Virus record (IMG/VR): IMGVR_UViG_2740892232_000008 | Span: 1 to 8,873 of that record | Origin: a virus | Lineage: Duplodnaviria > Heunggongvirae > Uroviricota > Caudoviricetes | Strand: one strand, 5' to 3' | DNA length: 8,873 nucleotides | Shown here: one piece after another, positions 3,019-7,786 of the stretch | Layout of the letters: every line of letters begins with the position of its first letter | How positions within the stretch are numbered: the stretch's first letter is position 1 | Notes under the pieces: generated by a model | Seen by the model: only the letters and a program-made list of their open reading frames with translations | Databases searched by the model: none | Told to the model about the DNA's origin: nothing | Position numbers and translations under genes: made by a program

Positions 3019-5069
3019 AAATGGTGGAAGAAGCGGCACGCAACGCTGAAGCCGCCTCTCAGAGCGCAGCGGCGGCAAAGAAATCCGAAACTGCAGCGGC
3101 ATCATCGAAGAACGCGGCGAAAACCTCAGAAACGAATGCAGCTAACAGCGCACAGGCGGCAGCGACCTCACAGACTGCATCGGCAAACTCCGCGACAGCA
3201 GCCAAAAAATCAGAAACCAACGCGAAAAACAGTGAGACAGCCGCAAAGACGAGCGAAACCAACGCAAAGTCCAGCCAGACGGCAGCGAAAACCAGCGAAA
3301 CGAATGCTAAAGCCAGTGAAACTGCGGCAAAAAACAGCCAGGTTGCAGCAGCCCAAAGCGAGAGCGCGGCAGCCGGTTCTGCGACTTCAGCAGCTGGATC
3401 AGCAACTGCTGCGGCTAACAGCCAGAAAGCTGCGAAGACGAGTGAAACTAACGCAAAGTCCAGCCAGACGGCAGCGAAGACCAGCGAAACGAATGCCAAA
3501 GCCAGTGAAACTGCGGCGAAAAGCAGTCAGGATGCAGCGGCCCAAAGCGAGAGTGCCGCAGCCAGTTCTGCAAGCGCGGCGGCTGCTTCTGCCACTGCAT
3601 CAGCTAACAGTCAAAAAGCAGCAAAAACCAGTGAAACCAACGCAAAGGTGAGCGAAACAGCGGCTGCGAACTCAGCGAAAGCATCGGCAGCAAGCCAGAC
3701 GGCAGCTAAAGCAAGCGAAGATGCAGCCAGAGAGTACGCAAGCCAGGCTGCGGAGCCGTATAAATATGTCTTACAGCCGCTGCCTGATGTGTGGATACCA
3801 TTTAACGATTCGCTGGATATGATTACGGGCTTTTCGCCATCATATAAAAAAATTGTTATTGGTGACGATGAAATAACGATGCCTGGCGACAAGATTGTTA
3901 AGTTTAAACGTGCATCGAAAGCAACCTATATTAACAAATCTGGTGTGCTGACAGAGGCTGCCATTGACGAGCCACGATTTGAACGTGATGGCCTGCTTAT
4001 TGAGGGGCAAAGAACAAACTACATGCTCAATTCGGAAAGCCCTGCCAGTTGGGGGCGATCGTCAAATATGGATGTGCCCGAAACAGGGACGGATAATTTT
4101 GGTTTTACCTATGGAAAGTTTGTCTGCAACGATTCTCTGATTGGGCAAACCTCAGCCATTAATATGGCATCAATTGCTGCAACAAAGTCAGTTGATGTCT
4201 CAGGCGATAATAAACACGTGACAACCTCATGTCGTTTTAAAACAGAACTGCAGGTAAGGTTGCGTATCCGGTTTGATAAATATGACGGTAGCGCAACAAC
4301 TTTTCTTGGTGATGCGTATATTGATACACAAACGCTTGAAATTAATATGACAGGCGGTGCTGCCTCAAGGATTACAGCGAGAGTCAGAAAGGACGAAGCT
4401 ACCGGATGGATTTTTGCAGAGGCAACAATTCAGGCAATTGATGGGGAGTTAAAAATAGGCTCTCAGATACAGTATTCTCCTAAGCAGAGCGGGGCAACCG
4501 TATCTGGTGACTATATTTATCTGGCCACCCCACAAGTAGAAGATGGGCCTTGTGTATCATCTTTTATTATATCAGGAGCGACGGCGGCGACCCGCGCAAG
4601 CGATATAGTTACAGTTCCAATTAAGAATAATCTTTATAATCTTCCTTTTACGGTTCTTTGTGAGGTACATAAGAACTGGTATAAAACGCCAAATGCAGCG
4701 CCACGTGTTTTTGATACCGGCGGTCATCAAACCGGAGCGGCTATTATTCTTGGCTTCGGTCGTTCAACAGATTACGACGGATTTCCTTATTGCGATATTG
4801 GAGGAGCTAACAGACGGGTAAACGAAAACGCATCGCTTGAAAAAATGGTTATGGGGATGCGTGTAAAGTCAGAGCAGTCTACGTGCTCAGTAAGTAACGG
4901 GCATATATCCAGCGAAACAAAAACCACATGGTCCTGTATTCAGAACACCGCAATTATCCGTATTGGAGGCCAGACTACAGCCGGGTTACGTCATTTATTT
5001 GGTCATGTCAGGAATTTCAGAATATGGCACAAGGCATTGACTGATGCTCAGGTGGGGGAGTCAATCTAA
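3019..5069 (+). CDS. stf: Side tail fibre protein (lambda Stf-like repeat shaft plus a distinct distal domain); 5' end lost at the gap
   Basis: The frame is open right up to the N-run, so the ATG at 3021 is internal. LMVEEAARNA...AAKKSETAAASS...AAKTSETNAK repeats resemble the lambda Stf region around MVEEVARNAS...AAKTSETNA as I recall it. The distal ~430 aa are non-repetitive and end ...IRIGGQTTAGLRHLFGHVRNFRIWHKALTDAQVGESI. Stop TAA at 5067-5069. Confidence 0.85.
3261..3638 (+). repeat. Two full 189-bp (63-codon) in-frame tandem repeat units inside stf, with degenerate partial copies on both sides (about 3070-3700)
   Basis: The string aacgcaaagtccagccagacggcagcgaa starts at 3261 and again at 3450 (offset 189). 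The units encode NAKSSQTAAKTSETNAKASETAAK(N/S)SQ(V/D)AAAQSESAAA...ANSQKAAKTSET with only a few substitutions. Confidence 0.85.
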
Positions 5070-5350
5070 TGAAAGATTTAACACTCAAATTTGAAGACAG
5101 GGCCGACTTTTCGGCCTTTATGGATAGCACTGGCTATTATGATGACGAGTCGATGCAGGATGATATTCTTATCGACGTGATAGGTAACGTGTACAAAGAA
5201 ACCGGAGAACTGACTGAAGATGGCGAACCGGTATGTGTTAAGGAAGACGGATATTTTGTAAACGTGCGCATCATTAATGATTCGCAAATATCGTCATTAT
5301 TCGATGAATACGTGGTTGCTGTTGAGCATCAACTTCGTGGCTGGATGTGA
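5069..5350 (+). CDS. Small acidic cytoplasmic protein (93 aa), translationally coupled to stf; function unknown, candidate fibre-tip assembly partner
   Basis: ATG at 5069 overlaps the stf stop (TAATG) and follows a GGGGAG Shine-Dalgarno. The product is Asp/Glu-rich. A paralog sits at the equivalent position after the second fibre-tip copy (7202-7480), sharing DGEP and EGYFVN(V/I)R motifs. Confidence 0.6.
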   Translation: MKDLTLKFEDRADFSAFMDSTGYYDDESMQDDILIDVIGNVYKETGELTEDGEPVCVKEDGYFVNVRIINDSQISSLFDEYVVAVEHQLRGWM

Positions 5351-5359
5351 GGAAGAAAA

Positions 5360-6400
5360 ATGGCTACATCGACAGTAATTCCTGATGACATCAAAACGCT
5401 AAAATCCGACGTTAGCAAATTAAAAAACGATCAAGGAAGCTACGCAACAAAATTATATGTAGACAGCAAAGATGAAATCGTTGGTGACTGGTCTGCTTCA
5501 TGGTATCAGCAGGTATTGCCAACTAGCGGAGCTATATTTGGGAGAAAACTCCGCTCAACTCACAGGACGGCAGGTGTTGAGGATGCGTATTGCGAACTAT
5601 ACCTCAAAAAATGGATAGACAGTCCAGGTAACGCAATGGCGCGCCTTAACCTGAACGATAACGGGACAAACATTTGCTGGGACTTTACCAACCTTTATGG
5701 CGGTACGATGATTTTTCCCGGTGACAGCGGATACCTCAAAATGGGTAACTGCCTTATGTCATACAGCAAGCGTGGAAGTAACGCGCTTATTAAATTTGAT
5801 TACACCGACACATTACAGATCAAATATGCCAATCATGGGTCAACCATGACATTAAACACACAGGGAACCGCTTATGCTGGTGTTACTGCTCAATTGTGGG
5901 GCAACTCCAGCCGTCCTGTTGTTTATGAAGTCGGTGTTGATGGTGGCGCTTATATGTTCTATGCGCAGAAAAATACCGATAACACCTATATGTTAAGCGT
6001 TAATGGTGCATGTCATGCCACCGCATTTAACCAGCATTCCGACCGGGATCTGAAAGACAACATTCAGGTGATCGATAATGCAACCGACCGCATCCGTAAA
6101 ATGAACGGCTATACATACACGCTTAAAGAAAACGGTATGCCCTATGCTGGTGTCATTGCACAGGAAGCTCTGGAAGCAATCCCAGAAGTTGTAGGTTCCG
6201 CAATGAAATATCAGGACGGTGCGAGCGGATCGGAAGGTGAAGAAGGTGAACGTTATTACACAGTAGATTATTCTGGTGTTACTGGCTTGCTTGTTCAGGT
6301 AGCCAGAGAGTCAGACGACAGAATAACAGCACTGGAAGAAGAAAACGCAGAATTAAGACAAAGATTATCTGCAATTGAGGCGGCGCTTGCGTCTAAATAA
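5360..6400 (+). CDS. Short tail-fibre or tail-spike-like protein with a C-terminal intramolecular chaperone (peptidase S74-type) autoprocessing domain
   Basis: AGGAAG Shine-Dalgarno 9 nt after the upstream stop. The C-terminal ~120 aa read HS-DRDLKDNIQVID...GVIAQEALEAIPEVV...YTVDYSGVTGLLVQVARE...ITALEEENAELRQRL, matching the SD(R)xLKxNI / IAQE..E..PE.V / VDYS...LL / coiled-coil pattern of endosialidase and T5 pb1-type chaperone domains. Stop TAA at 6398-6400. Confidence 0.75.
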   Translation: MATSTVIPDDIKTLKSDVSKLKNDQGSYATKLYVDSKDEIVGDWSASWYQQVLPTSGAIFGRKLRSTHRTAGVEDAYCELYLKKWIDSPGNAMARLNLNDNGTNICWDFTNLYGGTMIFPGDSGYLKMGNCLMSYSKRGSNALIKFDYTDTLQIKYANHGSTMTLNTQGTAYAGVTAQLWGNSSRPVVYEVGVDGGAYMFYAQKNTDNTYMLSVNGACHATAFNQHSDRDLKDNIQVIDNATDRIRKMNGYTYTLKENGMPYAGVIAQEALEAIPEVVGSAMKYQDGASGSEGEEGERYYTVDYSGVTGLLVQVARESDDRITALEEENAELRQRLSAIEAALASK

Positions 6401-7205: not shown

Positions 7206-7480
7206 GAGATTTCACGTTGCGTTTCAGTGATAAAGCAGATTTCAGGGCATTTCTCAGGAAACTTAACTGGGAAGAGGACGAAGAGCTGCAGAATGCCGTT
7301 CTGGTTGATGAGATTGGTTTTACGTTCAGTGAGTCAGGTGTTTCTGCTGACGGGGAGCCTGAATACACGCGAGACGAAGGGTACTTTGTTAATATTCGTC
7401 TTCTTGACGATGGCTTTGATGAATCCGTGTTCCGTGAGTGGGTGGTTACACCAGAGCGCCCGCTCAGGGAGTGGTTTTAA
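7202..7480 (+). CDS. Small acidic protein (92 aa), paralog of the 5069-5350 product
   Basis: GTG start overlaps the fibre stop (GTGA at 7202-7205) after a GGGGAG Shine-Dalgarno, the same coupling geometry as the first copy. It shares D(R/K)ADF, DGEP and EGYFVN(I/V)R motifs with the first copy. Confidence 0.6.
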   Translation: MRDFTLRFSDKADFRAFLRKLNWEEDEELQNAVLVDEIGFTFSESGVSADGEPEYTRDEGYFVNIRLLDDGFDESVFREWVVTPERPLREWF

Positions 7481-7489
7481 GGGGAGCAG

Positions 7490-7786
7490 ATGGATATCAC
7501 GCCGATACTTCATGCAATTTGTGCTGTGGCGGTACAGGGGCTGGTTGGGTGCATTACCGGTGACTGGGCTTATGGTGCAGCCATTGCCTGTACGTTTTTT
7601 GTTGCCCGCGAATATACCCAGGCAGAATATCGCTGGATTAAGCGTTTTGGTGATGGTCACCGACATAAGATGCCGTGGTGGGGCGGTTTTGATCCGCACG
7701 CGTGGGATGTGGCAAGCCTGATGGATTTTGTGGTGCCGGTGGTGGCCTGTGCGGGATTGTATGGCTGTATGCTGATTTTTAGCTGA
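7490..7786 (+). CDS. Small integral membrane protein (98 aa), paralog of the 6443-6736 product
   Basis: ATG 9 nt after the upstream stop with a GGGGAG Shine-Dalgarno. It has the same conserved loop motifs (AREYTQAEYRWI, MPWWGGFD, AWDVASLMDF.VPVVAC) and two hydrophobic segments. Confidence 0.6.
   Translation: MDITPILHAICAVAVQGLVGCITGDWAYGAAIACTFFVAREYTQAEYRWIKRFGDGHRHKMPWWGGFDPHAWDVASLMDFVVPVVACAGLYGCMLIFS

Follow-up and report, generated by a model that had tools for sequence, protein, structure and literature searches.

Fibre-Module Ends of Two Lambdoid Prophages in One Escherichia Virus Record and the Small Protein Families Encoded Beside Them

The virus record IMGVR_UViG_2740892232_000008 (Caudoviricetes; 8,873 bases, all of which were analysed and are called the window below) carries two copies of three genes: the end of a side-tail-fibre gene, a gene for a small acidic protein overlapping the fibre stop codon, and a gene for a small inner-membrane protein. 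The question raised by this locus is whether the repeat represents a duplicated receptor-binding cassette whose members diverge together, as a sequence-only reading had proposed, or has another origin. The window contains the 3′ ends of side-tail-fibre modules of two lambdoid prophages from one poly-lysogenic Escherichia genome, and their adjacency was created by concatenation. The explanation favoured overall, with a probability of about 0.6, is that these module ends are formed by a fibre head and its acidic companion, an optional distal fibre and an independent membrane accessory.

Origin of the Two Copies

Two runs of ten N (N10) divide the window into three contigs:

1–3008, minus strand: contig 1, lom and the 3′ 2.4 kb of the tail-tip gene J; part of neither copy
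3009–3018, no strand: N10 scaffold gap (run of N)
3019–6879, plus strand: contig 2, cut fibre A, acidic A, distal fibre, membrane A and a tfa remnant
6880–6889, no strand: N10 scaffold gap (run of N)
6890–8873: contig 3, fibre end B, acidic B and membrane B (plus strand), a YkgJ-family gene (minus strand) and a VapA/VapB-family gene (plus strand)

Contig 2 shows 99.9% identity to E. coli KK19-02, where it forms the right-hand end of a lambdoid prophage by sitABCD, uspF and ompN with the gene order J, lom, fibre, acidic, distal fibre, membrane, tfa remnant. Contig 3 (98% nucleotide (nt) identity over the whole contig) corresponds to a lambdoid prophage end at ompW/trp in E. coli CE10, in the order J, lom, fibre, acidic, membrane, followed by ykgJ-like and vapA-like genes. 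For contig 1 the identity is 100%, to yet another lambdoid prophage, the third, which sits at ompT in E. coli EC28; its orientation in the window is the inverse of the genuine J-lom-stf operon. Because complete E. coli genomes place the three contigs in three prophages at separate chromosomal sites, the two copies are attributed to poly-lysogeny and not to local duplication, and the structural picture of fibre-module ends from two prophages is held with high confidence. Homologues of the three genes do lie after the second gap, as had been claimed; this gap, however, is an N10 between contigs of different prophages, and the copies are nowhere neighbours in any genome.

A true local duplication in one prophage, giving tandem alternative tips of an invertible or shufflon-like kind, is extremely improbable. 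The copies are 1.8 kb apart in the window, as such a duplication would have them, but an N10 gap lies between them, the flanks are found at different chromosomal loci in complete genomes, neither an invertase gene nor inverted repeats are present, chromosomal ykgJ-like and vapA-like genes stand directly after copy B, and the junction occurs in none of the best-matching complete genomes. The tandem or alternative-tip cassette was rejected because of the N gaps and these flanks.

The ompT prophage of EC28 carries a fibre-acidic-membrane triad of its own, so that three or more of these modules are probably present in the source genome. The membrane gene is present in 1,900 of the 5,426 complete E. 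coli genomes (35%), in a median of two and up to seven copies per carrier genome; its occurrence twice is therefore normal for a poly-lysogenic Escherichia. One E. ruysiae contig contains two membrane-gene modules with 157 kb between them.

Comparison of the Two Copies

The module ends comprise the following features (aa, amino acids; E, expectation value):

3021–5069, plus strand: Stf-like side-tail-fibre gene, copy A, N-terminus cut by the gap, 682 of 791 codons (phrog_1419, E = 0)
5069–5350, plus strand: acidic protein A ('A-type'), 93 aa (phrog_1361, E 8e-46); ATG overlaps the fibre stop
5360–6400, plus strand: distal fibre, 346 aa (phrog_4563, E 1e-220); copy A only
6407–6429, plus strand: terminator-like GC hairpin (6407–6421) and T-run, between the distal fibre and membrane gene A
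6443–6736, plus strand: inner-membrane protein A, 97 aa (phrog_1443, E 3e-58; hydropathy profile)
6891–7205, plus strand: fibre end, copy B, last 104 codons (phrog_1419, E 8e-44)
7202–7480, plus strand: acidic protein B ('B-type'), 92 aa (phrog_1361, E 3e-39); GTG overlaps the fibre stop
7490–7786, plus strand: inner-membrane protein B, 98 aa (phrog_1443, E 4e-44)

The three homologous pairs of open reading frames (ORFs) described in the sequence-only reading were all recovered (E 3e-64 to 3e-29), and their order of conservation is the one it gave: tip, then membrane protein, then acidic protein. The tip pair (4776–5060 and 6909–7193) is 82.1% identical in nt and 84.5% in aa over 97 residues (E 3e-64), the membrane pair (6443–6736 and 7490–7786) 74.7% in both (E 2e-53), and the acidic pair (5069–5350 and 7202–7480) 42.4% in aa (E 3e-29), with no match in a comparison at the nt level. 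The stop-start overlaps also agree with that reading, TAATG at 5067–5071 in copy A and GTGA at 7202–7205 in copy B. The isoelectric points of acidic proteins A and B are 4.05 and 4.25, respectively. Between the copies, the ratio of nonsynonymous to synonymous divergence (dN/dS) comes to 0.10 in the tip and 0.17 in the membrane protein (dS about 1 for each), and in the acidic pair the synonymous sites are saturated. All three are taken to be real genes subject to purifying selection; the acidic pair is either much older or was exchanged by recombination.

The copies differ in architecture. In copy A, the 346-aa fibre gene (5360–6400) and the terminator-like hairpin intervene between the acidic and membrane genes, so the plain triad attributed to this copy is not found there; in copy B, the three genes abut, and no terminator-like hairpin corresponds to that of copy A. 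With the hairpin in copy A only, the expression of the membrane gene may differ between the two architectures.

Variation of the Three Genes Across Related Loci

The survey covered 132 non-redundant related loci, mostly prophage contigs from IMG/VR. The order fibre, acidic, membrane is nearly universal in them. A full-length membrane gene follows the acidic gene in 111 of the 132 loci, or 111 of the 115 that could be evaluated; among the other 21, 17 end too early, three have a truncated copy and one has no membrane gene. Absence or displacement of the acidic and membrane ORFs in related prophages, which would have spoken against a linked set, was thus not found, and the supposition of a recurrent neighbourhood holds for the lambdoid loci and also for Comamonas. 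Co-divergence, which had been claimed as well, fails: alleles are shuffled over the 132 loci, and the same acidic allele joins very different tips and membrane alleles, which contradicts a swappable unit with cognate partners. The combinations observed were:

A-type acidic protein with an A-like tip: 29 loci
A-type acidic protein with a tip less than 60% identical: 35 loci
B-type acidic protein with the A-type membrane protein (mA): 24 of 43 loci
B-type acidic protein with an mA-related membrane protein: 11 loci
B-type acidic protein with the B-type membrane protein (mB): 5 loci
B-type acidic protein with an mB-related membrane protein: 3 loci

Mantel correlations over 84 unique triads were r = 0.25 for tip and acidic protein and r = 0.40 for acidic and membrane protein (p about 0.0005 in both cases), and r = −0.04, not significant, for tip and membrane protein. 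The positive values are those expected from physical linkage in a biased, partly clonal sample and are no proof of cognate co-evolution. The only perfect association is that between acidic type and architecture: the distal fibre gene follows the A-type in 65 of 65 loci and the B-type in 0 of 43.

In betaproteobacterial prophages of Comamonas, the fibre is of the LamG type. The genes of C. kerstersii (locus L158, 3551–5294) have 4-nt overlaps, and the corresponding loci of C. testosteroni and C. thiooxydans are L168 and L174. In two of the species, the small protein (phrog_18574) is fused to an extra C-terminal domain of ~95 aa.

The Fibre and Its Conserved Head

Fibre A consists of a repeat shaft rich in Ala, Ser, Thr and Glu, followed by a globular C-terminal region of ~420 aa. 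It equals residues 110–791 of the KK19-02 fibre (100% identity) and covers positions 109–793 of the 793 in the phrog_1419 profile, which assigns it to the tail-fibre families phrog_1419 / phrog_5939. Full-length homologues possess the prophage tail-fibre N-terminal domain (Pfam PF08400) and PF13620. A direct repeat of ~189 nt with AKTSETNAK-type repeats is present in the shaft (3228–3458 and 3417–3647, 84% identical); it is a likely cause of the assembly break and a likely site of shaft-length variation. Two domains are distinguished in the head:

3996–4598, plus strand: beta-sandwich domain of fibre A (NCBIfam NF048003, related to the head spike fibre of the gene transfer agent RcGTA)
4605–5066, plus strand: terminal domain of fibre A, ~150 aa, plausibly LamG-like (residues ~529–682); its last 97 codons are the repeated tip

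The match to NF048003 ('phage head spike fiber') reaches 50.9 bits against a cut-off of 36 over fibre residues 326–526. In the AlphaFold2 model of the head, only this beta-sandwich is confident (the alignment is shallow, 26 sequences), and a Foldseek search with it retrieved tail fibres from two Pseudomonas phages, Pa193 and E217, together with carbohydrate-binding modules (CBMs) of families CBM4, CBM6 and CBM35. A profile built from the tip region has a weak match (E 0.038) in the PDB sequence of Rcc01080 (6TB9), and the motif G-x-x-V-S-S-x-I-x-T-x-x-x-x-V-T-R-A-x-D is common to the fibre and Rcc01080. The head fibre of RcGTA binds capsular polysaccharide (PMC7296036, PMC10218006).

The description of the tip as LamG-like is sustained in part. 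The direct match of the fibre end to Laminin_G_3 (PF13385; 18.6 bits, E 0.0022, last 53 residues) is under the gathering score of 27.6 bits, but a collinear homologue from Chelativorans is above the Pfam threshold (39.2 bits), so that the fibre end is plausibly LamG-like. AlphaFold2 gave a predicted local distance difference test score (pLDDT) of about 26 for this end, over segment residues 257–427 and from a shallow alignment. The poor fold may mean that a partner or oligomerisation is needed, or that the alignment is too shallow. The part of the fibre that AlphaFold2 did not fold (4605–5066) is the best-conserved part of the family, and the adjacent domain folded well.

The ~420-aa C-terminal region is 47–96% identical among lambdoid, T1-like (tunus), 9g-like (ESCO3), HK578-like (KarlBarth), T5-like (IrisVonRoten) and rV5-like (JeffSchatz) phages, and the last 40 residues are almost invariant across these six lineages. 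The tip is thus among the best-conserved parts of the fibre family and is not a hypervariable receptor-binding tip.

The Acidic Protein

Both acidic proteins span positions 1–92 of the 92 in phrog_1361, with a weaker match to phrog_18574. AlphaFold2 predicts an alpha/beta fold for acidic protein A (pLDDT 83). Matches were found neither in Pfam or NCBIfam, nor among PDB sequences, nor in PADLOC-DB at E ≤ 0.1. No similarity to Tfa or Caudo_TAP was detected by sequence or profile and the predicted fold is different, which agrees with the earlier placement of this protein outside the Tfa family. Structural comparison showed no likeness to known adhesins.

The acidic gene was detected by tblastn in 181 phage records, and in each listed record it lies beside or overlaps a lateral or side tail fibre gene. 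Its carriers include virulent Drexlerviridae (T1-like), Dhillonvirus (HK578-like), Queuovirinae (9g-like), T5-like and rV5-like phages. In all six loci inspected, the acidic start codon overlaps the fibre stop codon. Across many phage lineages, the acidic gene is thus tied to this fibre head as its obligate companion and is translationally coupled to it. Variation of the protein is concentrated in residues 40–56 and 70–80, which are flanked by conserved ends. It could serve as a fibre assembly factor or as an adaptor on the fibre end; this assignment is tentative and stands somewhat short of an even chance.

The Distal Fibre

The second fibre of copy A begins with the conserved peptide MATSTVIPDDIKTLK and contains a Peptidase_S74 domain (PF13884; 52.8 bits against a gathering score of 22) at residues 227–278, nt 6038–6193. 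The gene next after the acidic gene is a second fibre in the virulent phages, as it is in half the lambdoid loci. Its first ~20 residues are conserved (M-[AV]-T-x-T-[VN]-I-P-x-D-I-x-x-L-K) and the remainder differs, the variants being the 346-aa S74 type, a 234–245-aa type and the 574-aa fibre of IrisVonRoten. This N-terminal motif was found in 59 phage records; in every record compared, i.e., those that also appear among the acidic-gene records, the fibre starts 10–20 nt past the acidic gene. The virion proteins of the T5-like phage SIA3lw include the main fibre (ORF42) as well as the S74 fibre (ORF44); the product of the small ORF between them was not reported, but the gel left out proteins below 19 kDa (PMC12752171).

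The Membrane Protein

Both membrane proteins match the phrog_1443 profile over the full length; the UniRef name of the phrog_1443 protein is 'Ybl63'. The description of a two-helix protein is approximately correct: an N-terminal hydrophobic stretch of 37 residues (one or two helices) is followed by a polar loop of 40 residues and a C-terminal helix. Residues H8, G29, R40, E41, Q44, E46, W72 and P83 are invariant or nearly so. A full HMMER scan gave 365 representative clusters of 50–147 aa, and genome contigs were searched for the family with a profile from an 11-sequence alignment.

Among 46 diverse members, no meaningful Pfam match, including GtrA-like, was obtained (best E about 0.003, one or two members each), and even a profile of these 46 members had no match among PDB sequences. 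No PADLOC-DB entry was matched at E ≤ 0.1. Phage_holin_8 was considered and rejected, as it gave a single weak match in one of the 46 members. At the N-terminus, MDITPFLHALCAV, a basic n-region is lacking, as is an L-[AS]-[GA]-C lipobox, and Cys11 is not conserved in the family.

Outside the lambdoid modules, the membrane gene or its homologues were met in the following contexts:

P22-like phage JEP4: after the tailspike, its start overlapping the tailspike stop; int follows
P2-like Halomonas phage phiHAP-1: after a tfa-like gene, translationally coupled
Sphingobium: by an S74 fibre
Leclercia: by a Tail_spike_N protein
Pantoea: by a tail-fibre-type protein
Chelativorans: by a LamG fibre
Cobetia phage Carin-5 (154 kb): homologue in the tailspike cluster (locus L231, 3953–4270)
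Aeromonas phage PS1: homologue by a helicase/terminase gene (locus L230, 4929–5192)

The membrane gene is consequently an independent element that ends many kinds of receptor-binding module. Carin-5 and PS1 are large and probably virulent phages, so that the family is not strictly confined to temperate phages. In the virulent coliphages inspected, no membrane gene stands after the fibre and acidic genes, and none of those phage groups is among the tblastn matches listed.

In 17 of the 80 species-representative loci, all from Sphingomonadales, the membrane gene is flanked by Capsule_synth or Poly_export genes; only loci whose capsule genes were confirmed by tblastn were counted. In these 17 loci (within L176–L214; membrane gene at ~5001), the adjoining genes are of the KpsS/KpsC type (Capsule_synth) or the Wza/KpsD type (Poly_export), and a UDP-sugar epimerase gene often lies downstream.

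As a lead suggested by gene context, the common thread of these neighbourhoods could be glycan-directed host recognition and surface polysaccharide. The membrane protein might act on the host envelope, through superinfection exclusion or a change of the polysaccharide receptor, in the lysogen or in late infection; this is possible but doubtful. As regards the receptor-linked exclusion protein suggested earlier, a loose linkage to glycan-targeting receptor-binding modules in general can be retained. A link to this particular receptor cannot, since the gene is found behind other receptor-binding genes as well (P22-like tailspike, P2-like Tfa, S74 fibre, Tail_spike_N) and virulent phages that share the fibre and acidic genes do not have it.

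Favoured Explanation and Alternatives

Beyond the gene identities, synteny, allele shuffling and phylogenetic distribution that were observed, the action of the module could be pictured as follows. The Stf-like fibre would end in a glycan-binding head of ~420 aa, with a CBM-like beta-sandwich and a LamG-like end domain. The acidic protein would help the fibre to assemble or would serve at its end as an adaptor. In one of the architectures only, an exchangeable distal fibre could dock by its N-terminal peptide of ~20 residues onto the head and the acidic protein, and the acidic protein would help this docking, from which a two-part or branched fibre would result. The membrane protein would be a separate accessory at the end of glycan-targeting receptor-binding modules and not a partner of this tip; on the host envelope it might provide superinfection exclusion or modulation of surface polysaccharide.

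Several points weigh against this explanation. Loci entered the survey through their similarity to the two alleles of the window, and many of them are near-clonal. The acidic protein persists in 43 loci that have no distal fibre, and it therefore cannot be an adaptor alone. The membrane gene is often coupled to late genes and occurs in large, probably virulent phages, which fits poorly with exclusion expressed from a prophage. Many of its neighbours in the high-GC loci of Sphingomonadales are ordinary chromosomal genes or spurious ORFs. The triad is kept in three Comamonas species as fibre (phrog_5939/1419), small protein (phrog_18574) and membrane protein (phrog_1443) with 4-nt overlaps, so the neighbourhood is old; together with the acidic-membrane correlation (r = 0.40), this may indicate a functional link between the small acidic-type protein and the membrane protein.

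The Comamonas triad with its overlapping start and stop codons, the synteny in 111 of 115 evaluable lambdoid loci and the two positive Mantel values (0.40 acidic-membrane, 0.25 tip-acidic) could also be taken to mean that tip, acidic and membrane proteins form one co-evolving, swappable receptor-binding module, with a dedicated chaperone and a receptor-specific exclusion protein in the manner of T5 pb5/Llp or phi80 Cor. Such a module is very unlikely. Tip and membrane protein do not vary together (r = −0.04), the A-type acidic protein is found with an A-like tip in 29 loci and with a tip below 60% identity in 35, and the B-type is combined with four membrane classes. Moreover, the membrane gene stands behind unrelated receptor-binding genes and is missing in virulent phages with the same fibre and acidic genes, its product lacks a lipobox and resembles neither Cor nor Llp, and the tip is conserved rather than hypervariable. 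An equally poor prospect is that the acidic protein is a gp38-like adhesin on the fibre end that touches a variable receptor. This would account for its greatest divergence (42% aa identity; saturated synonymous sites), and it agrees with the focusing of variation in residues 40–56 and 70–80 between conserved ends and with the strict coupling to the fibre gene. However, the protein has just ~92 aa, is strongly acidic and resembles no known adhesin in structure; its type tracks the distal fibre gene perfectly (65/65 against 0/43), which is a better fit to docking or assembly; and it is not among the reported virion proteins of SIA3lw, though the gel left out those below 19 kDa (PMC12752171).

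For the membrane protein, action late in the lytic cycle could be envisaged, either shutting down or altering the synthesis or export of the surface glycan receptor so that progeny are not trapped, or tuning the envelope at lysis. In its favour, the start codon overlaps the stop of a late gene (tailspike in JEP4, tfa in phiHAP-1, the small protein in Comamonas), a homologue lies inside the Carin-5 tailspike cluster, chromosomal relatives occur in capsule synthesis and export loci, and in copy A no promoter-like site was found from the terminator-like hairpin to the membrane start codon. Yet none of the virulent coliphages with this fibre has the membrane gene, and its position in prophages is the usual slot of lysogenic-conversion cargo (P22 gtr, P2 Z/fun), which counts against this role and leaves it unlikely.

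The favoured explanation could be extended in two directions at once. The head with the 92-aa acidic protein would be a universal docking platform of lambdoid, T1-, T5-, 9g-, HK578- and rV5-like coliphages with exchangeable distal fibres, and Ybl63/phrog_1443 would be a new small inner-membrane family that manipulates the synthesis or export of surface polysaccharide for glycan-targeting phages and has cellular relatives in capsule loci. That both hold jointly is improbable. If true, the docking platform would be a cross-family 'plug-and-play' host-range system and a new class of fibre adaptor or chaperone.

Similarity to Known Systems

The module occupies the same late-operon place after J and lom as lambda Stf/Tfa (and Mu S/U, P2 H/G); the PF08400 N-terminal domain is common to the full-length homologues, and a small gene is coupled directly downstream. 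The head, however, is CBM-like and plausibly LamG-like, not the lambda Stf tip, and the downstream protein differs from Tfa in its predicted fold and in having no Caudo_TAP match; the only trace of tfa is a dead fragment at 6756–6875. The branched LtfA/LtfB fibres of the T5-like phages DT57C and DT571/2 likewise combine a main fibre with a separately encoded S74 second fibre attached by its N-terminus, and recognise O-antigen-type receptors (PMC4728585, PMC10713586). The T5-like phages IrisVonRoten and SIA3lw have a main fibre, a small ORF and an S74 fibre, as in the architecture of copy A. Unlike in LtfA/LtfB, the two fibre genes are separated here by the gene for a conserved 92-aa acidic protein, the end of the main fibre is plausibly LamG-like instead of being an S74 domain of its own, and attachment of the distal fibre is presumed. 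Rcc01080 (GhsB) of RcGTA (PDB 6TB9), which binds capsular polysaccharide, has a homologous NF048003 domain; it decorates the head as a monomer and is anchored through a Leu-Gly repeat at its N-terminus, whereas the domain described here is at the end of a long tail fibre.

Small envelope proteins whose genes lie beside host-recognition genes are also known among receptor-blocking exclusion lipoproteins (Llp of T5, Cor of phi80, N15 and T1) and inner-membrane exclusion proteins (gp15 of HK97, SieA of P22 and Imm of T4). The likeness of the membrane protein to these exclusion proteins comes from gene position; it differs from them in having no signal peptide or lipobox, no co-variation with the tip and no sequence match. 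Conversion cargo (P22 gtrABC, the polymerase inhibitor of epsilon15, Iap of D3) shares with it the slot between tailspike and int (in JEP4), the nature of a small membrane protein and relatives in polysaccharide loci. Here, in contrast, a single protein of 97 aa is encoded, with no match to GtrA or another Pfam family and often coupled to a late gene, and the function is suggested by gene context.

Other Features of the Window

The remaining genes of the window lie outside the two module ends or are remnants:

about 1–553, minus strand: lom, running off the window edge
620–3008, minus strand: C-terminal 800 codons of the tail-tip gene J
6756–6875, plus strand: tfa remnant, C-terminal fragment; a RefSeq pseudogene at the matching KK19-02 position
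7801–8235, minus strand: YkgJ-family CxxCxxCC gene, just beyond the prophage end at the ompW locus
8421–8873, plus strand: VapA/VapB-family gene (Pfam R_equi_Vir, 118 bits), neighbour of the YkgJ-family gene

VapA/VapB is a virulence-associated family of Rhodococcus equi, and the YkgJ/VapA-like pair is present in E. coli CE10 as well.

Significance

The arrangement in the window is largely ordinary: poly-lysogeny and scaffolding explain most of it, and it is not a duplicated or co-evolving cassette. The acidic and membrane families are already catalogued, in PHROGs as families of unknown function and in RefSeq as 'hypothetical protein', and are extremely common; searches of the literature on BASEL phages, DT57C, Gifsy-1, lambda-Stf engineering and 'Ybl63' turned up no account of either small protein. 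The remaining interest lies in two widespread, experimentally tractable families without an assigned function. The acidic protein accompanies a very widespread family of lateral fibres, including those of manipulable phages of the BASEL collection, and its role, chaperone or adaptor, bears on the engineering of fibre chimeras and the prediction of host range. If the membrane protein alters surface glycans or blocks infection, it would influence the phage susceptibility of clinical strains, as about one third of complete E. coli genomes carry it, often in several copies.

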